A stretch of DNA of 64,000 nucleotides from a phage: sequence record NC_103192.1. One strand, written 5' to 3'. The position numbers were made by a program, and so were the translations under genes. Position 1 is the stretch's first letter, and each line of letters starts with the position of its first letter. The notes under the pieces are model-generated. The model did no database searches. It had not been told where the DNA came from and saw nothing but the letters and a program-made list of their open reading frames with translations. Shown in pieces: positions 1-61,856 of this stretch.

Positions 1-786
1 TTGAGAGACAACCCAGAATACCTTGCTTTCCTTGAAGGTCTGCCAGAACTGGAAAAAGCTCAGCTTCTTCATGGCAACTGGTTTGCCAAACCTGAGGGTG
101 CGAACTATTTCCAAAGATCTTTCCTTCGTGATGCCGATAGAGTGCCCCTTGGATCAGTATCTTGCAGGGCATGGGATAAGGCAGGAACAGAGAGAACTTC
201 CGGTAATAAATTTCCTGACTTTACCGCCAGTGTTAAGGTAAGTAAAGATAGCGACGGTTTTTATTACCTGTCCGGGGATTATTGTCCTGAGAACGTGGAT
301 GACGGTAGGTATTCCACAGGTCTGGAAGGCAAGTTCTGTAAAAAGGCTGGGGAACGAGATGTGATCATCAGGAAACAGGCGCAGTTTGATGGAGATGATT
401 GCATAATCGTATTCTCTGTGGACCCTGGTCAGGCAGGTAAGAGTGAGTTCTTAACCTCCTCCAGATCCTTACTCGCCGAAGGGTTCAGGGTTGAAGAAGA
501 CCCAATGCCTTCCAACAAATCTAAACTGACAAGGTTCTCACCTTTTGCCAATCTTGCACAACAAGGAATGGTGAGGATTGTAAAATCCAGTTTCCATCCT
601 GATACTCTGGAAGCATTTCTGACTGAACTTGAAAAATTCAACGGGGAAAGATCAACATTTAGCAGAAAAGACGACTGGGCAGACTGTGTAGCTTCTGCGA
701 TTAATTTTCTGGAGAAAGAGGAGGTAGCACTTCCTTGTGTGATTCCATCAATCTCATCACCTTCTATGTTCAAGCGTTTTATCTAA
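1..786 (+). CDS. terminase large subunit, C-terminal nuclease part (5' end outside window)
   Basis: ORF open from base 1; acidic Asp motifs (WDKAG..., SVDPGQAG, KDDWADCVASAI) resemble the RNaseH-like terminase nuclease domain; sits immediately upstream of the portal-sized gene. Confidence 0.6.
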   Translation: MRDNPEYLAFLEGLPELEKAQLLHGNWFAKPEGANYFQRSFLRDADRVPLGSVSCRAWDKAGTERTSGNKFPDFTASVKVSKDSDGFYYLSGDYCPENVDDGRYSTGLEGKFCKKAGERDVIIRKQAQFDGDDCIIVFSVDPGQAGKSEFLTSSRSLLAEGFRVEEDPMPSNKSKLTRFSPFANLAQQGMVRIVKSSFHPDTLEAFLTELEKFNGERSTFSRKDDWADCVASAINFLEKEEVALPCVIPSISSPSMFKRFI

Positions 787-16716: not shown

Positions 16717-17714
16717 TGGCAGAGTACAGACGTAGAACATGGCGATTATTGTTTGGTCGTCCGGTAGAGCATGGTGGTAAATCAAAAACCAATATCCCAA
16801 AATCTGTTGAAAAGAAAGGGGAGAGTGATTCCGGAGTTTATGAAGTTAGCTCAGACACTGGTGCTGCCAATATAGAGTTTGACATACAAAAGGACAATAC
16901 CAAAGAGCCAAACAAAGGTTATGTGACAGTTTACAACCTGTCTGACGATACAGTTAACTATCTGGATATGCATCAGGCTGATGCCCTTGCAGTTATGTTT
17001 GAAGCTGGCTATGATAATGAGAACCAGTTGATATTCTCCGGAACTGTGGAGTTTGTTGAAGACAGATGGGAAGGTCCGACCAGAAAAACTAAGTTCATCT
17101 TTGGAGATGGCACTGAGAACATCATTAAGTGCCAAAGCACAAGATCTTATCAGAAAGGCACACCTCTGAACTCTGTGCTTAATGACCTGCTGAAGGATAT
17201 GAACTTGCCAAAAGGTAGGGTTGTTGGTTTTGGAAACCAGACTTTGCAATACTCTATGGCTTTCTCTGGAAACACTGCAGAGAACCTCCGCAGGTTTGCA
17301 AGGCTGACAAACTCAACATTTAGCGTTCAGGATGGGGCTTTATATTGGACCAAGGTTGGAAAAAGGTTCAAGGACTCTGTATTTGAAATAAGTGCAGAAT
17401 CTGGGATGCACGGATCACCTACTCCTAAAAACCCAGAACCTGCTAAAAAACGAAAAGCTAAAGCTGCTGCGAAAGGTGGCACAAGTAAGAAAAAGAAAAA
17501 CCCGAGAGAGGATGTTGGTCTTACTGTAACAACATGCCTTAACGGAGCTATCCTCCCAGAGTCCACCATTTATCTTAAAAGTAGGCAATACACAGGTTTC
17601 TATAAGGTGATCACGGTGCACCATAAGGGCACCATAGAAGGCGGTGATTACACTACAGAGCTTGGCCTTGGGGAAACAATAGGTGGAGTTGTTGACAAAA
17701 CTGAGGAGGTATAA
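16716..17714 (+). CDS. putative baseplate hub protein
   Basis: 332 aa with Lys-rich segment (PAKKRKAKAAAKGGTSKKKKNP); position directly upstream of the gpV-like spike. Confidence 0.4.
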   Translation: MAEYRRRTWRLLFGRPVEHGGKSKTNIPKSVEKKGESDSGVYEVSSDTGAANIEFDIQKDNTKEPNKGYVTVYNLSDDTVNYLDMHQADALAVMFEAGYDNENQLIFSGTVEFVEDRWEGPTRKTKFIFGDGTENIIKCQSTRSYQKGTPLNSVLNDLLKDMNLPKGRVVGFGNQTLQYSMAFSGNTAENLRRFARLTNSTFSVQDGALYWTKVGKRFKDSVFEISAESGMHGSPTPKNPEPAKKRKAKAAAKGGTSKKKKNPREDVGLTVTTCLNGAILPESTIYLKSRQYTGFYKVITVHHKGTIEGGDYTTELGLGETIGGVVDKTEEV

Positions 17715-18391
17715 TGGCAATAAATAGGAAAGATGCTGCCGTAAGATCCTTTATAGAAAAAATAATGAGGGACTACCACACCAGTATCAGGGCTAGAGTT
17801 GTCAGCGTAGATTACAGTATCCCTTCCGCAGCCGTGCAGCCAATAGCTGAAACCACGTTTGATGACGGAGATGTTGAGAGATACCCTCTTATCTATGATG
17901 TGCCAATCCAGGTGATGTCTGCAAACAGTGGGAAGGCAAGGTTAACACTCCCTATTAAGGCTGGAGATGTTGTAGGATTGCAGTTTTCAGAGAGAAATGA
18001 AAACAATAATGATGATCAACAAACTCACGGCCTGTTTCCGGGGTGGGCAATCACCTCTGTTCATTCAGACTCAAACGCCTTACAGATCGATCCTGATAAC
18101 GTAGAGTTATGGAATGATAGGGTTTATTTTAAACTGACACCTTCTGGCGATTTTGAGCTTCAAACACCTGGTGGGACATTACGGTGCGACAGCAGCGGGG
18201 AGTTTTCTTTCACTAACGGGGCTGCCAATTTGCGAGCTGCTGTGGATGGGAATATCAGAATGAATGGTGCTACAATAGACCCATCTGGTAGAATTATAAC
18301 TGCTGCTGGCGTGGATTTGGATTCATTCTATGCAGAATATAAAGGTCATACCCACTCTTGCCCTGATGGCGAGACAAGTGGACCGCACTAA
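17714..18391 (+). CDS. baseplate spike protein (gpV-like)
   Basis: 225 aa; C-terminus GHTHSCPDGETSGPH matches, from memory, the HxH...G..TGSP apex motif of P2 gpV-type spikes. Confidence 0.55.
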   Translation: MAINRKDAAVRSFIEKIMRDYHTSIRARVVSVDYSIPSAAVQPIAETTFDDGDVERYPLIYDVPIQVMSANSGKARLTLPIKAGDVVGLQFSERNENNNDDQQTHGLFPGWAITSVHSDSNALQIDPDNVELWNDRVYFKLTPSGDFELQTPGGTLRCDSSGEFSFTNGAANLRAAVDGNIRMNGATIDPSGRIITAAGVDLDSFYAEYKGHTHSCPDGETSGPH

Positions 18392-26940: not shown

Positions 26941-27492
26941 ATGATTAGAGCGCCATTAGATAATTTATTTCTTGAAAAGCTGGAGCTTGATGGTGTTGAG
27001 ATCTTAATTGCTGCAAAGTTGGAGCTACCGACAGGAACTGTCAGGGTGTGTTCAGGAACCGGTGTTGTAGTAATTGAGGGGCAACATTTTATAGGGATAG
27101 GTGGATCAGCAACATTAACTGCTGTGTCTGAGAAAGATGCCACCAACTTCGGATCTGTGGTAGCGACATTGAACGGGTTTGATCCTAAGTATGTGGGTGA
27201 TCTACTGAAGACGGAGTATTCTGGTTGTCGTGCCACGTTGTACATTACCGCTATGGAGAATGGTCTGCCTGTTACAACCAATGGCTTGTTTGACGGCCTT
27301 ATAACAGATATGGCTATTCAGACAGGTGAGAATAGTGCTTTGTCCATATCCATCTCTTCCATCTTCAACAGTTGGTTAAGAGGTTTTCCTTATCGGTACA
27401 CGGAGGAAAGCCACAGCTCAAGAAACGATAATGACAGATTTTTTAAATATGTGGATCAGGTGGCGAGCCGCCCGATCATTTGGGAGGTTTAA
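26941..27492 (+). CDS. hypothetical tail tip protein
   Basis: ATG 26941 with GAGGA RBS (track start 26926 is TTG). Confidence 0.4.
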   Translation: MIRAPLDNLFLEKLELDGVEILIAAKLELPTGTVRVCSGTGVVVIEGQHFIGIGGSATLTAVSEKDATNFGSVVATLNGFDPKYVGDLLKTEYSGCRATLYITAMENGLPVTTNGLFDGLITDMAIQTGENSALSISISSIFNSWLRGFPYRYTEESHSSRNDNDRFFKYVDQVASRPIIWEV

Positions 27493-27917
27493 TGAGCACA
27501 CGCCCTCGTTTAGTGGATTGGCAAGAAAGATTGTGGAAAGTGTTTGACGAAGAGGCCACCATACCTTTTGAATGGGGATTCCACGATTGCTGCACCTTTG
27601 CAGCTAAGTGTGTTGATGCCCAATACGGAACAGATTTTCTTTCTAACTTCGAAGGAACGTATAAAACAGAGTTGGAAAGCAAAAGATGGTGCATGCTCCG
27701 TTTCAAAACCACACACCTGCCTACTATTTTTGATCTCTTTATGACTCGACTAGATACTCCTAAACAGGTTCAGCGTGGCGATATTGTTATCTTCGAGGGT
27801 CTGAACGGGCTCACCGCTGGTGTGTTCTGGAACAACCAGATTTGGGCGAAAGGTGATAAAGGGGTCTTTATGTTCGATATGAAAGATTCTATCGTTGTTG
27901 ATGTCTGGAGGTATTAA
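27492..27917 (+). CDS. NlpC/P60-like tail protein (gpK-like)
   Basis: 141 aa; Cys motif WGFHDCCTFAAKC and later GDIVIF...G resemble the papain-like NlpC/P60 catalytic core; ATG 27492 with GGGAGG RBS. Confidence 0.45.
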   Translation: MSTRPRLVDWQERLWKVFDEEATIPFEWGFHDCCTFAAKCVDAQYGTDFLSNFEGTYKTELESKRWCMLRFKTTHLPTIFDLFMTRLDTPKQVQRGDIVIFEGLNGLTAGVFWNNQIWAKGDKGVFMFDMKDSIVVDVWRY

Positions 27918-37784: not shown

Positions 37785-38099
37785 GTGGAGTTGGATTTGG
37801 CGGCATTGTACGGTATCTGCATGGGTACCGTTGTCCCGATCTGTGTATGGGCTTTCAACCAGTGGCACACCAAATGGAAAGGCATTTCCAAGAGGTTGGA
37901 TGAACTGGAGAAAGACCTCATCTTAGTGAAAAACAGTATGGTTACAAAAGATAAACTTGATTCCGTTATAGAGACCCGGTTAAGCAAGCTAGAGGCCGAT
38001 ATTAACGACCTTAAGCAGGATGTCAGGACAGATGTCTCCGGTATCCGAGCCGATGTACAAAAGATTTTGCACATGCTCGTAGAGCATAGTAAAAGGTAA
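37785..38099 (+). CDS. small membrane-anchored coiled-coil protein (spanin-like?)
   Basis: 104 aa; N-terminal hydrophobic helix then heptad-like region; GTG start 4 nt after GAGGAGG. Confidence 0.4.
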   Translation: MELDLAALYGICMGTVVPICVWAFNQWHTKWKGISKRLDELEKDLILVKNSMVTKDKLDSVIETRLSKLEADINDLKQDVRTDVSGIRADVQKILHMLVEHSKR

Positions 38100-39241: not shown

Positions 39242-39508
39242 ATGAAATTAACTCAGTTTTTATGGGGACTGGTTGCAGCATCTGATGACCCTACAAAAGT
39301 GTCCCAATCTAAGCTATGGTCAAACATAGGCATGGCAGTGATGACTGGGGTGTTTATTCATATGGGGTATAATGATACGCTTCCTGAATGGTATGCGTGG
39401 ATATACGCACCTTCGGTAGCTTGCCCCCAGCTTATTAGCAAATTCATCTCGCTCCGGTGGGGTTGCCAACACCCTGACCACGTTAAAAACGAAGAGCAAA
39501 AAGCTTAA
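39242..39508 (+). CDS. small membrane protein (holin-like or exclusion-like)
   Basis: 88 aa with two predicted hydrophobic helices; strong RBS. Confidence 0.4.
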   Translation: MKLTQFLWGLVAASDDPTKVSQSKLWSNIGMAVMTGVFIHMGYNDTLPEWYAWIYAPSVACPQLISKFISLRWGCQHPDHVKNEEQKA

Positions 39509-56267: not shown

Positions 56268-56537
56268 ATGTTATACCAGCAATATGAACTTCGTGCAGAA
56301 AAAGAGTTAAATTTTGACAAAGATATTCACAGATATTATTATGGGAAAGTTAGAGGGCAAGCAAGAAAGTGTACTCCAACACTCTTTTATGCCAGCAGAC
56401 GACTAGCGCCAGAAGAGGCAACAGCAGAAAGGGTTGCATATGGCTGGAGAGTTGCGTATGATATTGACAGATCCGATGTGATGTCTGTTTTGGAAAACTT
56501 TGAAAACACTTACACACAAGTAGAGGACTTTTACTAA
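56268..56537 (+). CDS. hypothetical protein
   Basis: 89 aa, AAGGAG RBS. Confidence 0.4.
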   Translation: MLYQQYELRAEKELNFDKDIHRYYYGKVRGQARKCTPTLFYASRRLAPEEATAERVAYGWRVAYDIDRSDVMSVLENFENTYTQVEDFY

Positions 56538-57721
56538 TGTCAAGAAACGTATTCGAAAGTGGTCAAATCACTGTCCGCGAGTTGCCAGCTATTATTCAAT
56601 TTGCCCAGCGTCATAACCGATCTGTCCTGATTTTAGGACCGATGGGTGTGGGGAAGAGCCAGGTGATGAAGCAGATTGCTGATAATATGTTCGGTGAGCG
56701 AGATGACAACCTGGTTGACGTGCGGCTGTCAGATAAAGATCCTGCTGACTTGTCTGGACTACCTATCCCTGTAGAGGCAGATGGAACTACACGCACAGTG
56801 TTTGCAATTCCAGAATTTTGGCCTGCAGACTCGGACTGGAGCGGAATTATCTTTCTGGATGAGCTTACTCATGCAGATAACTACCTGCAGAAGGTTGCAA
56901 TGCAAATTATGCTCGACCACAAGTGCGGCACCTATGCATTTCCTAAGGGCTCTGTTTTTGTAGCTGCAGGTAACCGTTCTACAGATGGTACGGTTCTTTC
57001 GGCGCTCGAAGCTCCTCTGGCTAACCGCTTTATCATTGTAGAAGTTACAAGCAATGCAGAGGTGTTTATTGAGGACTATGCATTCCTTAATGGGGTGCAC
57101 TCCTCTGTAATTGGATATTTGAAAAGAGTTCCATCAGCTATTGATAATTATGAGGCTATGGCTGAGATTAATTGTCCATCTTTTGCCACACCGCGATCTT
57201 GGGTTGCTGCATCTGATATCTTGCACGATTTTGACAGCGGTATTATTTCTGACGCTATGGCCCGTGTTCTTCTGCAAGGTGCTATTGGTCACACTGCAGC
57301 GGTAGAGATCTGGACTTACCACACCAAGAAACGCAATTTACCGGAAATCGGTCGGATTATGGCAGGTGGCTGCAAAGAATACGTAGGTCCTAAGCAGCCA
57401 GACATTTTGTGGATTCTTGGATCTGAAGGTTGTATCGCTATTCGTAATATGATGGAAAATGCAAGTATCTCAGACGAAGATCTTGTCAGCTGCGTGGCAA
57501 ACTTCCTCGATTTCCTTTGGGAAAACTTCAAGGACGAGAACCGAGATTTTGTATTCTCAGTCTTTATGGCGATGATGAAACCTAATGCCTTAGGAAATGC
57601 CTTGCTTATCGGTAAAGGGCGTGACAAGATTGTTGCTCAGCTGATCAAAGCATACCCAAACCTGATGAAGATTGTAAAAGAGTTTGGTGAAGAGTTTAGC
57701 GCCATTTTGGCTAAAGCTTAA
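56537..57721 (+). CDS. MoxR-like AAA+ ATPase (AAA_5 type)
   Basis: Walker A LILGPMGVGKSQ, Walker B IIFLDELTHA, sensor-1 FVAAGNRS, Arg-finger region LEAPLANRF. Confidence 0.65.
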   Translation: MSRNVFESGQITVRELPAIIQFAQRHNRSVLILGPMGVGKSQVMKQIADNMFGERDDNLVDVRLSDKDPADLSGLPIPVEADGTTRTVFAIPEFWPADSDWSGIIFLDELTHADNYLQKVAMQIMLDHKCGTYAFPKGSVFVAAGNRSTDGTVLSALEAPLANRFIIVEVTSNAEVFIEDYAFLNGVHSSVIGYLKRVPSAIDNYEAMAEINCPSFATPRSWVAASDILHDFDSGIISDAMARVLLQGAIGHTAAVEIWTYHTKKRNLPEIGRIMAGGCKEYVGPKQPDILWILGSEGCIAIRNMMENASISDEDLVSCVANFLDFLWENFKDENRDFVFSVFMAMMKPNALGNALLIGKGRDKIVAQLIKAYPNLMKIVKEFGEEFSAILAKA

Positions 57722-57730
57722 GGGGGTTGT

Positions 57731-58111
57731 ATGGCTAAAGTAGGTAAGCGGGGAAACTACCTGGTGGTATTGACCGAGGAGCCGGAGAAGGAGTACGAAT
57801 GCAGCTCCACTTGCGTGATCGATATCCGAGAAAAAGATGTAGATGAAATCTGGTTTAAAATATTGGACGCTTGCGATAGCAGTGATTATTTCTTCATCTA
57901 TGTCAACGATAAGGCTGGGTTCTTCCATGACGACGGAGAGTTGCCGTATGAAATCTATGAACTTGTAGAGGCTTGCCATCGTGGAGATGCGGAGTTATTT
58001 GGCTTACGGCTGAAAAGCGGTAAATTCTTCTACCAAGACGAGTGCATGAATCTTCACAACTTCGTAGAGGGAACTTGCAACGATGGAGAGATTTTGGCAC
58101 ACTACGACTAA
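57731..58111 (+). CDS. hypothetical Cys-containing acidic protein
   Basis: 126 aa, AGGGGG RBS. Confidence 0.4.
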   Translation: MAKVGKRGNYLVVLTEEPEKEYECSSTCVIDIREKDVDEIWFKILDACDSSDYFFIYVNDKAGFFHDDGELPYEIYELVEACHRGDAELFGLRLKSGKFFYQDECMNLHNFVEGTCNDGEILAHYD

Positions 58112-58123
58112 TTTCTAAGACCA

Positions 58124-58151
58124 CCCCCGCTTCGGCGGGGATTTTCTATTT
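58124..58151 (+). terminator. rho-independent terminator with UUCG tetraloop
   Basis: CCCCCGC-TTCG-GCGGGG then ATTTTCTATTT. Confidence 0.7.
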
Positions 58152-58160
58152 GGAGCTATT

Positions 58161-58661
58161 GTGAAAATTAAAATCTTTGCTATTATTTTGAGCGCATTTT
58201 TATCGCTGCCTGTTGTTGCAGCACCCAAACAAAAAGTATATCACACCTGCAAGCCATCGGATACTAAGGAGAACATTCTGGCATGCAATATCTACAGGGA
58301 AGCCAGAGGAGATGGCACGATGGGTATGCTGGCATCAGGGTTTGCCACACTAAACAGGAAATCTCACCCCAAATACCCGGACACCATAAGAAAGATTGTC
58401 TACCAACCTAACCAGTTTTCGTGGACAAACCACGGCAAAACTTTTAAGGTGACAGAAAAAGATTCATGGGATCACGCTAAAAGTCTTGCAAAGATGCTTC
58501 TAAAGGTCTATAATAACAACCATGTTGCATACATGGCTATGGATATAACAGGTGGAGCAACGCACTATCATACAACAAAAGTACGACCGAAATGGGCAAA
58601 AAAGATGCAGAGGACAGCTCAATTCGGGAGTCATATCTACTACAAGGAGCGCAATAAATGA
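58161..58661 (+). CDS. secreted SleB-like cell wall hydrolase (endolysin candidate)
   Basis: N-terminal signal-peptide-like MKIKIFAIILSAFLSLPVVAAP; core NIYREARGDG...ATLNR...PDTIRKIVYQPNQFSW fits the Hydrolase_2 (SleB) pattern. Confidence 0.6.
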   Translation: MKIKIFAIILSAFLSLPVVAAPKQKVYHTCKPSDTKENILACNIYREARGDGTMGMLASGFATLNRKSHPKYPDTIRKIVYQPNQFSWTNHGKTFKVTEKDSWDHAKSLAKMLLKVYNNNHVAYMAMDITGGATHYHTTKVRPKWAKKMQRTAQFGSHIYYKERNK

Positions 58662-60640
58662 TTGTAAACAGTAATGAAACTAAAGCAGTACTAACCGGAA
58701 ATATGGAGGTCACCAGGGGCTCAATTTCTCTGAACAAAGAGACTTTTGGGCTAATCATTAAAGGGATTTACGAAGATAAGGTGCTGGCAAGCTGCCGTGA
58801 ACCAATCTTCAATGCCGTGGACTCCCATGTTGAGTCTGGACGAGGTGATGTACCGATCATTATTCACTCTCCTACAGACCTTGAACCATACTTCTTTGTG
58901 CAGGACGTTGGATTGGGCATGTCAGAAGAGATGGTCCGCAACACTTTCATGAACCTCGGGGAGTCAACCAAGCGCAACAGCAACGCTCTGGTAGGTAATA
59001 AAGGTGTAGGTTCAAAGGCCCCGTTCAGCATGGTGGACACTTTCGATGTGATCAGTGTGCACAACGGTGTTGAAAGCACATATCTGTTGTTCTTGGATCA
59101 GGGTATCCCAAACGTTACCAAGATCCGCGAGCGGAAGACTGAAGAGCACAACGGGGTAAAAGTTCAGTTCCATGTTAAGAAAGAGCATGTCCTGAAATAT
59201 CGCACTGCTATTGCATCGTGCTTACGCTATGCGAAGTTTCCGTTCACCGTCACCGACCCTATGACCAGTAAAATGCTGGAAGGTGACAAGGTTGAGGCGC
59301 AGTATCACTACGAGAAAGATGGTTGGAAAATGACTATCCTAAAGGGCTATACCAGCTCTGACGAGAGTCGTGTGGTAATGGGGCACCAACCTTACCGATC
59401 TAAATTTCTGGAAACATTGACAGACTACCCTGCAATCTGTGTAGAGATCCCTATCGGGGATTGCAATATTAACCCAGGGCGTGAATGGACTATAGAGGGT
59501 CACGACGATGGTGGATTCCAAGAGCGTCTGGAGGCTTTTGTCAAAGAGGGTATCCGCCTACGTGGGGCAGAAGTTGTTGCGGAATTAGAGACAGCAAAAA
59601 CATCCTCAGAAGCACGCGAGATGATGAAGAACAGTGGAGTGTTCGGGCACATCTTCGGTAAAAATTTTATGTGGGAACGATGGGAAGAGACAGGACTAGG
59701 AAGCTTGGGAGATTGCGAGATCTTCGCTGGCGGCTTAAATAAAGGCCGTATAGGTTACGCCTGCTACGGAAAGGTAGAATTCTTACGGGGAGTCTATTTA
59801 GTATTTAACGACGGAGACGGCAAATATAACCGAAATAAGTGTAACTACTTAAGCGAGATCACCGGACGCAACGTTTTCTATTGCCGAAACACGGATCTGG
59901 TGAAAGAGTTTAAAGAGGCGGCACACCATCCTTTCTTTGCAGATACGGTCAAATTGTTATCAGAGCTCCCTCGCCGACCTGCGAAGAAAGGTGAAACAAA
60001 AACTCATTATGAGCCAGGCTATTGGGTTAAAAAACTTGAGAAGGATGGTTACTTCCGTCGTGAGCGTATTACTAAGGCAGAGTTCAAGAAGATTAAGCAC
60101 TGCATTCCTTATGAGGGTGATATCCAACGTGGAAGTTGTTGGCTGGGACAGCTAAGTAACATCTACCAGCAAAATTATGACCGTGTGCGTGCGGCACTCC
60201 AGATTCCTGAAGGGGAAGATCTGTACCTGGTATCAGAATCTCGTCTGCTTTGGACTGATCCTGATTGCCAGTATGTTACAGAGAAAAATGTGGAACATTT
60301 GTTGAAAGAGGACGCCTGGAAATTCTTACTGACTCGCGCAGCAAATGAAACTTCATATGACAGCCTGTATAGACAATTAGGGAAAATTATCCCCATGCAA
60401 GATTTTGGAAATTATCGGCCACATTTTCACAAGTGGGAAGGTAACACCGCGTGGAAGCACAGTGAGCTAAATCATCGTGCCAAAATCTTAATCGCCAACC
60501 GAGTCAAGTGCGGGAAGGCCTATATTGCAAGATTGGAAAAGAAATATCCACTTTTGAAGCATGTGGGCTTGAAATATTGGGACACTCCTGCTATGATTGA
60601 ATACCGTGAACTGATCGACGCAAAGAATAACACCAAATAA
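58658..60640 (+). CDS. rIIA: rIIA-like protein with N-terminal GHKL-type ATPase fold
   Basis: 660 aa; N-box-like EPIFNAVDS, G1-like FVQDVGLGM, G2-like GNKGVGSKAPF; ATGA overlap with upstream gene. Confidence 0.55.
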   Translation: MIVNSNETKAVLTGNMEVTRGSISLNKETFGLIIKGIYEDKVLASCREPIFNAVDSHVESGRGDVPIIIHSPTDLEPYFFVQDVGLGMSEEMVRNTFMNLGESTKRNSNALVGNKGVGSKAPFSMVDTFDVISVHNGVESTYLLFLDQGIPNVTKIRERKTEEHNGVKVQFHVKKEHVLKYRTAIASCLRYAKFPFTVTDPMTSKMLEGDKVEAQYHYEKDGWKMTILKGYTSSDESRVVMGHQPYRSKFLETLTDYPAICVEIPIGDCNINPGREWTIEGHDDGGFQERLEAFVKEGIRLRGAEVVAELETAKTSSEAREMMKNSGVFGHIFGKNFMWERWEETGLGSLGDCEIFAGGLNKGRIGYACYGKVEFLRGVYLVFNDGDGKYNRNKCNYLSEITGRNVFYCRNTDLVKEFKEAAHHPFFADTVKLLSELPRRPAKKGETKTHYEPGYWVKKLEKDGYFRRERITKAEFKKIKHCIPYEGDIQRGSCWLGQLSNIYQQNYDRVRAALQIPEGEDLYLVSESRLLWTDPDCQYVTEKNVEHLLKEDAWKFLLTRAANETSYDSLYRQLGKIIPMQDFGNYRPHFHKWEGNTAWKHSELNHRAKILIANRVKCGKAYIARLEKKYPLLKHVGLKYWDTPAMIEYRELIDAKNNTK

Positions 60641-60650
60641 GGAGACAGCT

Positions 60651-61856
60651 ATGATTTTCATCTACGAACATTTCAAAACTCGTAAAGAAGCACGTGACCG
60701 CCGTGCAGAGCTTGAGAAGAAGGGTTTCACATGCGCTATTGAGAAAGGTAACACAACCTGGACACTGGCAGTGGGTGCCCCAGAGTTGTTCGATCCTGAC
60801 CGTGACAGCGTCTGCTACACCCGTGAGGATTTTGAAACCCGTGAAGAGGCCCGTTTATTTCGATATGGGCTGGAAGATAACGGTAAGTACGCCATGATCT
60901 TAGACTTAGGAGAAGGTTCCGTTAAACGTTGGGGCGTGGTATATCCGCTGTGTGTTGTTCACGGTGTAGGGTTCACTGGGGTAGCAATCAAGTCAGAAGA
61001 ACCTTTAGTAGAAGTAAAAGACCCGGTGCTGGAGGTGGTGAGCAGTGTGTCTCAGCAACAGACCCGAAGCATCGAGCCTTTGGTGGTTATTTGCGGAGAA
61101 CTCCTCCAGATCACCTGTAACGAAGGCATTTTTGAAATTCGCCGCAGTGAAAGTGAGGAAGTTTACCAGAAAGTTTTCGACCATATCTCTGTTCAGGAAT
61201 ATGATGAGGCAATTGGTGAAATCCTTGTCTGGCTGGAACGCAAGAATGAGTTCACCACACTTGCAGACAACCTGATCATGAAAGATGGCAAGCTCTACTA
61301 CTACGGTGTAGAGATGCGATCCACCATTGCAAAGAAAATTGAGAAAGATTATGCAGATGGAACACTGGATGACCGCTATGTGAAATTCCTCGTTCGCCTG
61401 CTACGCAATCCTTCTGCAAAATCTGTAAACATGCTCTACGATTTTATGCAGGCCAACGATATCCAGATTGCAGAAGATGGTCGAATCATTTGCTACAAAG
61501 GGGTTCAGTTTAACGGCAGCAAATGGGTGGATTGGCACAGTGGTAAAGTTCCACAATACCAGGGTGCTTTTGTATCCATGCCTCGTAACTTTGTAGAGGA
61601 TGATCCGGAAGCTGCGTGCTCCTATGGCTTACACTGCGCCAGCAAAGAGTATGCAAAGAGCTACGGCACTGTAATGATGGTTATGGTTGATCCTGCAGAT
61701 GTGGTTAGTGTGCCATACCAACACAATAGCGCTAAGTGCCGTGCATGCCGCTATGAGATTGTGGTAGCTCCGGAAGCACGCAAAGATGGAGACCCTATCG
61801 AATATGTAGTTGATCGTGACGGTAACACTATCGACATTCTTTACGAGGAGGCGTAA
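60651..61856 (+). CDS. rIIB: rIIB-like protein
   Basis: 401 aa; C-terminal region (LYDFMQANDIQIAEDG...GLHCASKEYAKSYG...VMVDPADVVSVPYQHNSAKCRACRYEIVV) resembles the conserved rIIB core as recalled from T4; adjacent to rIIA-like gene. Confidence 0.55.
   Translation: MIFIYEHFKTRKEARDRRAELEKKGFTCAIEKGNTTWTLAVGAPELFDPDRDSVCYTREDFETREEARLFRYGLEDNGKYAMILDLGEGSVKRWGVVYPLCVVHGVGFTGVAIKSEEPLVEVKDPVLEVVSSVSQQQTRSIEPLVVICGELLQITCNEGIFEIRRSESEEVYQKVFDHISVQEYDEAIGEILVWLERKNEFTTLADNLIMKDGKLYYYGVEMRSTIAKKIEKDYADGTLDDRYVKFLVRLLRNPSAKSVNMLYDFMQANDIQIAEDGRIICYKGVQFNGSKWVDWHSGKVPQYQGAFVSMPRNFVEDDPEAACSYGLHCASKEYAKSYGTVMMVMVDPADVVSVPYQHNSAKCRACRYEIVVAPEARKDGDPIEYVVDRDGNTIDILYEEA

Follow-up and report, generated by a model that had tools for sequence, protein, structure and literature searches.

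A predicted Sec-exported SleB-type cell wall hydrolase of an rV5-like phage, probably accessory to a separate endolysin

The closest described counterpart of the gene considered here is gene 2 of phage rV5, which was annotated in 2013 as 'cell wall hydrolase, 166 aa, PF07486' (rV5 Table S3, PMC3606486); the authors of the rV5 study regarded gp89, and not gp2, as 'an obvious lysin'. Work published in 2020 on the homologue of phage CB7, CB7_83, reported a signal peptide, conservation across the Vequintavirinae and toxicity upon expression in E. coli, the latter given there as 'data not shown' (PMC7344957). The coexistence of such an enzyme with another one has also been described for other phages. 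In T5-like phages an M15 endolysin is encoded beside the holin, and a SleB-type open reading frame is located far off in the early region. In Phapecoctavirus, enzymes of the families PF00959 and PF07486 coexist, and a SleB-type open reading frame accompanies a different canonical endolysin in the phages BME3 and PVP-SE1, in Septuagintavirus and, as reported together with the CB7 homologue, in Certrevirus (PMC7344957). During infection by Pseudomonas phage PAK_P3, cell-wall precursors accumulate, an effect which has been tentatively tied to the homologue gp151 as a potential AMG (PMC4933390). The literature, therefore, already covers the gene (as rV5 gp2), the domain and signal peptide of its product and the pattern of 'two lysins'.

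The locus and its gene neighbourhood

The stretch of DNA that was analysed (the window; 64,000 nucleotides of record NC_103192.1) starts within the gene for the large terminase, at TerL residue 255. Over its region 56500-61000, 121 phage records match it with 90-96% identity, and rV5-like Escherichia phages (Vequintavirinae, Vequintavirus) with genomes of about 135-140 kb account for almost all of them. By this similarity the source can be assigned to an rV5-like Vequintavirus, an E. coli phage with a genome of about 137 kb, of which a 64-kb window holds under half. The following features are discussed below.

58125-58151, plus strand: intrinsic-terminator-like hairpin (CCCCGC-TTCG-GCGGGG) with T-run, ATTTTCTATTT, read from the sequence and kept in seven related loci
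58152-58155, plus strand: Shine-Dalgarno sequence GGAG, 5 nt upstream of the GTG start
58161-58661, plus strand: open reading frame for a predicted exported SleB/CwlJ-type (Hydrolase_2) muralytic enzyme of 166 aa, equivalent to rV5 gp2 (Pfam, PHROG, PDB, AF2, tblastn)
58161-58220, plus strand: predicted signal peptide, residues 1-20, with a predicted signal peptidase I cut between VVA and AP (hydropathy, -3/-1 rule)
58221-58658, plus strand: putative mature periplasmic domain, residues 21-166 (predicted cleavage, model)
58299-58301, plus strand: codon of Glu47, the predicted catalytic glutamate, within the motif Y-x-E-[AS]-R-G (alignment to SleB)
58658-60640, plus strand: rIIA-like gene, the ATG of which overlaps the hydrolase stop (ATGA); the 3' end of the hydrolase gene contains the AAGGAG that belongs to rIIA

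The open reading frame was confirmed exactly at 58161-58661 with its GTG start, and its product is 99.4% identical to that of rV5 (NC_011041; tblastn). Among public assemblies, 1,246 index blocks carry a gene for an identical protein, and the contigs concerned are about 95% identical to the window at the DNA level. The independently chosen phage MaxTheCat (Bas57), whose DNA is about 96% identical, shows 18 nucleotide differences within the hydrolase gene and no amino-acid change, indicating that the protein is under purifying selection. Six further loci likewise have no amino-acid differences, which in their case follows from the way they were retrieved, namely by an exact match of the protein.

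The hydrolase gene resides in a replication block, with a gene for a MoxR-like ATPase upstream and the genes for rIIA, rIIB, helicase, primase and polymerase downstream. Its immediate neighbours encode rIIA and a soluble protein of 126 aa, the latter a homologue of T5.083 (rV5 Table S3, PMC3606486). No holin or spanin gene was found next to the hydrolase gene, and a scan of the window for proteins with two TM segments (KD19, the 19-residue Kyte-Doolittle mean, of at least 1.6) detected none. An adjacent holin, as it has been proposed for Certrevirus, was rejected for this locus, since neither here nor in the six other lineages that were fetched does the gene have a TM protein as neighbour.

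Homologues of the hydrolase are present in 1,265 phage records (tblastn), and the neighbours of the gene differ in every other lineage that was fetched; those of the homologues in Mydovirus, Certrevirus, Stephanstirmvirinae, T5-like and Pseudomonas phages are genes other than rIIA. Two potential partnerships were considered and dropped on this basis. The hydrolase and the product of the upstream gene are not likely to form a pair of enzyme and inhibitor, as their linkage is not conserved; a tblastn search around the SleB gene of a T5-like phage revealed nothing T5.083-like up to a distance of 4 kb. Similarly, a functional coupling of hydrolase and rIIA through the ATGA overlap is unsupported, given that this adjacency is confined to Vequintavirus.

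A SleB-type domain behind a predicted signal peptide

The assignment of the protein to the SleB/CwlJ-type hydrolases is based on several searches. The Pfam family Hydrolase_2 (PF07486, 'Cell Wall Hydrolase') matches residues 51-161 with 70.4 bits (gathering cutoff 27 bits) and an E-value of 2.1e-19, covering positions 2-100 of the 100 profile positions, and PHROG 938, labelled 'endolysin', matches with an E-value of 1.7e-27. By sequence, only two PDB entries proved to be related, 4F55 and 4FET, both of them Bacillus SleB catalytic domains. An AF2 model built from an alignment of 11 sequences reached a mean pLDDT of 88.6 and is confident from residue 21 on, with the globular domain beginning at about residue 28. 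When this model was compared with the PDB by Foldseek, the same two structures were the only significant matches (E of 0.001 or below), with a probability of 1.0 and TM values, normalised to the target, of 0.72-0.79.

Within the hydrolase motif Y-R-E-A-R-G-D, Glu47 aligns to the first glutamate of the SleB sequence 'YGESRGE' in 4F55 and 4FET, which we take to be the catalytic residue (E151 in B. anthracis), in agreement with the chain numbering of the PDB alignment. The residue is near-invariant across the homologues of the hydrolase. To act as a lytic transglycosylase, SleB requires one catalytic glutamate (PMC12331253), and the shared fold and motif suggest that the phage protein may likewise cleave glycan strands. 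At the same time, the hydrolase scored 48.3 bits with the SleB equivalog model (NCBIfam TIGR02869, spore_SleB), far under the cutoff of 236.5, and matched this model at positions 83-201 only, corresponding to the catalytic half. A Pfam scan of the protein returned Hydrolase_2 alone and found no peptidoglycan-binding domain. Judged from these profile scores, the protein is a member of the wider family and not an orthologue of SleB.

The first 20 residues consist of an n-region MKIK, an h-region IFAIILSAFLSL and a c-region PVVA, followed by A-P-K. The h-region comprises 12 hydrophobic residues with a maximum KD19 of 2.29, and the segment ends with a Val/Ala site (VVA followed by A) that conforms to the -3/-1 rule. 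The call of a signal peptide is thus rule-based, relying on hydropathy and the -3/-1 rule and not on a dedicated predictor. In the AF2 model, the segment is detached from the globular domain and has a pLDDT of 51-54. Cleavage at the predicted site would release a mature protein of 146 aa and 16.9 kDa with a pI of about 10, in which Cys30 and Cys42 may pair as a disulfide. Homologues from Mydovirus (KB57), Certrevirus (CR9), Stephanstirmvirinae (ALITA and anhysbys) and a T5-like phage (HildyBeyeler), which are 34-53% identical to the hydrolase, similarly possess signal peptides with AxA-like sites, and the retention of this feature at such a distance lends comparative support to the export signal. 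Equivalents of both cysteines occur in the four myovirus homologues (KB57, CR9, ALITA and anhysbys), and one of them in that of the T5-like HildyBeyeler. In place of such a signal, the homologues of PAK_P1 and Nankokuvirus bear a TM segment at the N-terminus and lack an AxA site.

The N-terminus is, thus, predicted to be a textbook cleavable Sec signal as opposed to the weakly hydrophobic domain of a SAR endolysin, and the identity as a SAR endolysin was discarded based on the strongly hydrophobic h-region and the VVA/A site, again by rule. Taken together, SleB-type identity and export of the hydrolase are highly probable. These results bear out the earlier note on this DNA, which had proposed from the letters alone a signal-peptide-like N-terminus (now backed by hydropathy, cleavage site and the signals conserved among homologues) and a SleB-type core (backed by Hydrolase_2, the PDB sequence matches and AF2/Foldseek); the note had also correctly placed the gene in an early/replication block, as judged from the MoxR-like ATPase, rIIA, rIIB, helicase, primase and polymerase genes around it, and had recognized that an adjacent lysis cassette is missing. 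The N-termini of three related proteins, P0006, P0007 and P0009, resemble those of lipoproteins and likewise point to the envelope.

The signals in front of the gene are consistent with a low level of synthesis. The GC-rich hairpin ends 10 nt ahead of the Shine-Dalgarno sequence of the hydrolase and, counted with its T-run, just before it; it is invariant across the seven related loci. An identical sequence is listed for rV5 as the rho-independent terminator t003 with a dG of -16.0, and the same table lists no promoter for genes 2 or 1 (rV5 Table S4, PMC3606486). In KB57, CR9 and PAK_P1, too, a comparable hairpin stands directly upstream of the homologue, and a sigma70-like promoter (TTGCAA-N17-TACAAT or TATACT) comes after the hairpin in ALITA and anhysbys. 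GTG or TTG serves as start codon of the homologues in four lineages. An upstream terminator in combination with a weak GTG start suggests that little hydrolase is made, and the gene might be expressed at low dose through read-through of the terminator. A low dose would be in keeping with the toxic effect that expression of the CB7 homologue is reported to have. This picture could shift if a phage-specific promoter has escaped recognition or if the RNA is processed at the hairpin. Further downstream, a promoter-like site with 10 of 12 matches is present within the hydrolase open reading frame at 58486-58514 and could serve rIIA.

Lysis genes of close relatives and the role of the enzyme

In the earlier note, the hydrolase was put forward as the endolysin candidate of this phage, and another canonical endolysin elsewhere in the genome was named as the observation that would speak against it. 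The close relatives do carry one. In MaxTheCat, the annotation of which was surveyed in full and its lysis labels examined anew, the endolysin bas57_0207 (156 aa), which adjoins the DNA ligase and corresponds to rV5 gp89, matches the lysozyme R of phage lambda (PDB 1AM7) over its full length with an E-value of 3e-56; it gave no Pfam match and displays no hydrophobic N-terminus or export signal. LysECP26, a member of the gp89 family from an rV5-like phage, is 62% identical to lambda R, and the purified enzyme lysed 29 of 29 Gram-negative strains (PMC9728275). The gene for the lambda-R-type endolysin was identified in 115 phage records (megablast), and a SleB-like protein of at least 95% identity likewise in 115 phage records (tblastn).

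The remaining lysis genes of MaxTheCat are dispersed. The i-spanin, with an N-terminal TM segment, and the o-spanin, with a lipobox-like LLCGC signal, both match a PHROG labelled 'Rz-like spanin' and are encoded immediately upstream of TerL, as has also been described for rV5, PVP-SE1 and CB7 (PMC7344957). Two holin candidates, bas57_0112 and the rV5 gp129-like bas57_0168, the latter bearing two TM segments and, at its C-terminus, a high density of charges, are located elsewhere in the genome. In the relatives, no recognized holin adjoins the lambda-R-type endolysin, so that these genes do not form a cassette. When endolysin, spanins and holin candidates of MaxTheCat were compared with the window by tblastn, none of them matched; TerL and the portal protein were the only MaxTheCat proteins that did. 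Going by relatives of about 95-96% identity, the main lysis genes of such phages would be located beyond the window, and the apparent absence of an endolysin would be due to the window covering 64 kb of a genome of about 137 kb. Since these relatives possess a lambda-R-type endolysin, the SleB-like protein represents a second muralytic enzyme, and both its biochemical identity and this status are well supported.

The lysis functions are, thus, scattered in this phage group, as the earlier note had supposed, but the genes concerned differ from the two small membrane proteins that it had named. In the product of 37785-38099, a single N-terminal TM segment is clearly visible at residues 3-24, and the charged stretch behind it looks helical or coiled-coil. 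The protein falls into PHROG 5345, a group without known function, and is kept in the fibre module of 223 records, where it is labelled as hypothetical, membrane or tail-fibre protein. The product of 39242-39508, although assigned to PHROG 1322 ('membrane protein'), is only weakly hydrophobic (maximum KD19 of 1.05); its conservation extends over 368 records, Stephanstirmvirinae included. Both are conserved across the Vequintavirinae, and neither has a holin or spanin annotation or a family match pointing to lysis.

The statement that the hydrolase is the only recognizable peptidoglycan hydrolase holds for the window by the searches applied here, with one caveat. The DUF6950 baseplate protein encoded at 27480-27917 is labelled 'cell wall hydrolase' in one relative; it matched DUF6950 alone in Pfam and a PHROG of unknown function, a single-sequence AF2 model had a pLDDT of 41, no PDB relative was found by sequence or profile, and we found no mention of DUF6950 in the literature. 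No muralytic domain emerged when the tape measure, baseplate and hub proteins in the window were scanned with Pfam, and the label 'tail lysozyme' on 17714-18391 was set aside, as only the N-terminal domain of a central-spike protein and no lysozyme domain was found there.

Based on these data, our preferred reading, to which we assign a probability of about 0.6, is that the hydrolase is an accessory, holin-independent, Sec-exported and low-dose SleB-type muralytic enzyme of the periplasm and not the principal endolysin, with final lysis being left to genes beyond the window, those for a lambda-R-type endolysin, a holin and spanins. According to this model, most of the mRNA that covers the gene would stem from read-through at the terminator, and with the weak GTG start little protein would be made. 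The 20-residue signal peptide would direct the product to Sec and would be cut by signal peptidase I after VVA, as predicted from the sequence; the mature basic domain of 146 aa would then fold in the periplasm, possibly with a disulfide between Cys30 and Cys42. There, Glu47 would act as catalytic acid in a SleB-like cleavage of the peptidoglycan glycan strands, an activity that is suggested by fold and motif. Low-level nicking, independent of the membrane, might weaken or remodel the sacculus during infection, while final lysis would be accomplished by the cytoplasmic lambda-R-type endolysin, the holin and the Rz/Rz1-type spanins, which all close relatives encode outside the region of the window. 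The weakest step of this model is the physiological purpose of an early periplasmic activity, and the role of the enzyme is much less certain than its identity and export.

An active hydrolase in the periplasm before assembly is complete would seem risky, which leaves room for a role other than lysis. The enzyme might be a non-lytic remodeller of the periplasmic peptidoglycan that changes the sacculus early so as to block superinfection, accommodates an enlargement of the cell, releases muropeptides or precursors in an AMG-like fashion or counteracts a host defence tied to the envelope. Such a function would suit the position of the gene in the early/replication block, the sigma70-like promoter in front of the Stephanstirmvirinae homologues, the early region of T5-like phages in which the homologues reside and the signals for low expression; it would also be in line with the maintenance of the gene beside an independent endolysin in many lineages, and with the view of PAK_P3 gp151 as a potential AMG linked to the accumulation of cell-wall precursors (PMC4933390). 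However, the toxicity upon over-expression suits a lytic enzyme equally well, and the adjacency to rIIA/rIIB is limited to Vequintavirus and, not being conserved beyond it, provides no argument for a shared function. We therefore consider a purely non-lytic role possible but rather doubtful. It might be speculated, with similar reserve, that in rV5-like phages, T5-like phages and Stephanstirmvirinae the exported SleB-type enzyme serves as an early, low-dose editor of the sacculus that is throttled by a conserved terminator and a weak start. If so, the host sacculus would be re-engineered to exclude superinfecting phages, to evade envelope-sensing defence or to feed muropeptide or precursor pools.

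Less likely still, and in our view improbable, is that the hydrolase is the principal endolysin and acts independently of a holin in the manner of Lys44 of the Oenococcus phage fOg44, being secreted early and unleashed upon depolarisation of the membrane. A cleavable signal peptide together with a muralytic domain, the hallmark of Sec-secreted endolysins, is predicted here, and the label 'endolysin' is attached to the protein in several database records, among them RefSeq rV5 and those of the phages ECP2303 and ECP2309. A canonical endolysin, in comparison, accumulates in the cytoplasm without an export signal, is linked to a holin/spanin cassette and is the sole or principal muralytic enzyme of its phage, whereas the hydrolase bears a Sec signal by rule, lacks such a cassette and, judged from the relatives, is not the principal enzyme. 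The reading as principal endolysin is further opposed by the lambda-R-type endolysin without export signal in all close relatives, by the lytic activity of its family member LysECP26 and by the choice of gp89 over gp2 as lysin of rV5 by its authors. In addition, the second enzyme recurs in T5-like phages with a holin-adjacent M15 endolysin, and an upstream terminator and a GTG start are ill-suited to the bulk production of a late protein.

A catalytically dead protein that binds peptidoglycan or regulates, for example as a periplasmic modulator, the lysis machinery would be compatible with the score far under the SleB equivalog cutoff and with the absence of the natural SleB substrate from E. 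coli. Against this very unlikely reading stand the glutamate of the catalytic motif and other family-invariant residues, which have been retained under purifying selection, as well as the toxicity of the CB7 homologue (PMC7344957; data not shown there). Least credible of all is a virion-associated lysin for local digestion of peptidoglycan at DNA injection. Many phage tails do carry enzymes of muralytic fold, but such lysins are present in virions and encoded in the structural module, whereas this gene belongs to the replication block. Moreover, the predicted cleavable Sec signal would take the protein out of the cytoplasm, where virions assemble. No tryptic peptides of gp2 appear in the MS tables of rV5 virions (weak negative evidence, as only 19 proteins were detected there), and the text on the 26-protein CB7 virion set does not count the homologue among the structural proteins that it names, describing CB7_55 as the sole structural gene outside the CB7 structural gene region.

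Thus, in several lineages of large virulent phages that infect Gram-negative bacteria, a second wall enzyme, exported and of the SleB type, is retained at a great distance from the holin-linked endolysin. As such an enzyme reaches the peptidoglycan without a holin, its role could also bear on the design of enzybiotics.

Comparison with described wall enzymes

With Bacillus SleB and CwlJ (4F55, 4FET, PF07486), the hydrolase shares the catalytic fold and the motif Y-x-E-[AS]-R-G-[ED]. Like CwlJ it is a single-domain protein, whereas SleB has an N-terminal peptidoglycan-binding domain which is missing from the phage enzyme, a predicted periplasmic protein from the phage of a Gram-negative host. 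SleB needs muramic-delta-lactam, which is not present in the peptidoglycan of E. coli. The specificity of the hydrolase must, therefore, differ from that of SleB, with ordinary peptidoglycan as the substrate.

Lambda R, rV5 gp89 and LysECP26 resemble the hydrolase in being small, basic, single-domain proteins and predicted glycan-strand cleavers with one catalytic glutamate, but are unrelated to it in fold and family. In addition, gp89 is holin-dependent and lacks an export signal, and genes of its type are absent from the window, while the hydrolase is predicted to be exported. Export is the feature that it has in common with Lys44 of fOg44, Lyz of P1 and R21 of phage 21, muralytic enzymes that are Sec-exported independently of a canonical holin. 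These three are, however, the sole endolysins of their phages, whereas the hydrolase coexists with another. Moreover, the SAR domains of P1 Lyz and R21 are weakly hydrophobic and remain uncleaved, in contrast to the strongly hydrophobic h-region with its AxA-type site in the hydrolase; the homologues of PAK_P1 and Nankokuvirus, with a TM segment and no AxA site, look nearer to the signal-anchor type.

The T5-like SleB open reading frames (AKFV33 ORF81, HildyBeyeler bas33_0077) and PAK_P3 gp151 belong to the family of the hydrolase at 35-40% identity. The T5-like homologue shares with it the signal peptide, the location in the early region and the coexistence with another endolysin, in that case a holin-linked M15 enzyme, but has no adjacent T5.083-like gene. 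In Certrevirus, a candidate holin with two TM segments overlaps the homologue and rIIA/rIIB are not present, whereas here the overlap is with rIIA and no TM protein is adjacent. The orthologues within the Vequintavirinae include CB7_83 of a Pectobacterium phage and CR3_087 of a Cronobacter phage, and the former, like the hydrolase, has both a signal peptide and a Hydrolase_2 domain. Finally, rV5 gp2 has the same length, the same neighbours (the T5.083-like gene, the MoxR ATPase and rIIA) and the same terminator t003, and there is essentially no difference between it and the hydrolase described here.

Sequences flanking and within the hydrolase gene

The SleB-like hydrolase gene (58161-58661, + strand), which starts with GTG, is accompanied by the following features:

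57731-58111: acidic 126-aa protein of PHROG 12370, encoded upstream of the hydrolase gene
58125-58151: GC-rich hairpin followed by a T-run, directly 5' of the hydrolase gene
58486-58514: sigma70-like promoter match TTGCAA-17-TATAAT (10/12 positions), inside the hydrolase ORF

In rV5-like phages, KB57, CR9 and PAK_P1, the SleB-like gene is immediately preceded by a GC-rich hairpin with a T-run. In ALITA and anhysbys, which belong to the Stephanstirmvirinae, the hairpin comes first and is followed by a sigma70-like promoter 5' of the SleB-like homologue. GTG or TTG starts for SleB-like genes occur in four lineages, and the combination of upstream hairpin and such start codons looks like a conserved way of throttling a toxic gene. 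The promoter-like site within the ORF precedes the rIIA ATG by about 145 nt and could provide rIIA and rIIB with a transcript of their own without the need for terminator read-through. The product of the upstream neighbor 57731-58111 is listed in rV5 Table S3 (PMC3606486) as a homologue of T5.083 and is shared with T5; in the T5-like phage HildyBeyeler, the T5.083-like gene does not adjoin the SleB-like gene.

Three more distantly related proteins of about 155 aa (P0006, P0007 and P0009) share 35-38% identity with the hydrolase, and in each the plain signal peptide is replaced by a lipoprotein-like N-terminus (...ALLFSTASC-D/E), which suggests a membrane-tethered variant of the SleB-like enzyme.

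Among the database records, about 16-23 phages titled 'Campylobacter phage' (host field C. jejuni), including MG065635, MG065659, MG065672 and MG065676, share 96-99% identity with rV5-like phages of E. coli. The whole set looks mislabelled or contaminated; some of the records are partial (59-75 kb).

Proteins of the baseplate and fibre modules

27480-27917: DUF6950 family member in the baseplate module; annotated in BASEL as 'cell wall hydrolase'
37785-38099: 104-aa protein with an N-terminal TM segment, then a charged stretch, helical or coiled-coil in appearance
39242-39508: 88-aa protein, PHROG 1322 'membrane protein'

In the DUF6950 protein, H-D-C-C is conserved, and this element and the motif Q-R-G-D-[IV]-V are reminiscent of NlpC/P60 enzymes, yet no conserved His is seen; no relatives were found in the PDB. 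The 37785-38099 product is retained in the tail-fibre module in 223 Vequintavirinae records. Its tblastn match in PVP-SE1 overlaps genes 43, 44 and 45, the first two being annotated as membrane proteins and the third as a tail fibre assembly protein. The 39242-39508 product is kept in 368 records, among them Stephanstirmvirinae and some Aeromonas phages; as it is only weakly hydrophobic (maximum 19-residue Kyte-Doolittle mean, 1.05), its membrane status is doubtful.

Lysis and candidate lysis genes of relatives outside the window

1-786: 3' portion of the large terminase gene (TerL); the window begins at residue 255/515
L003:24285-24491 (- strand): MaxTheCat bas57_0206, 68 aa, outside the window, directly adjoining the lambda-R-type endolysin gene

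In relatives, an Rz/Rz1-type spanin pair is located just 5' of TerL and, since the window starts inside TerL, the pair is lost at its edge. The bas57_0206 product is hydrophobic at its N-terminus (MKDFLLAILFMAACLACGVVFAG...) and acidic in its C-terminal part; it is an unannotated candidate for a lysis partner such as a holin, an antiholin or another regulator.
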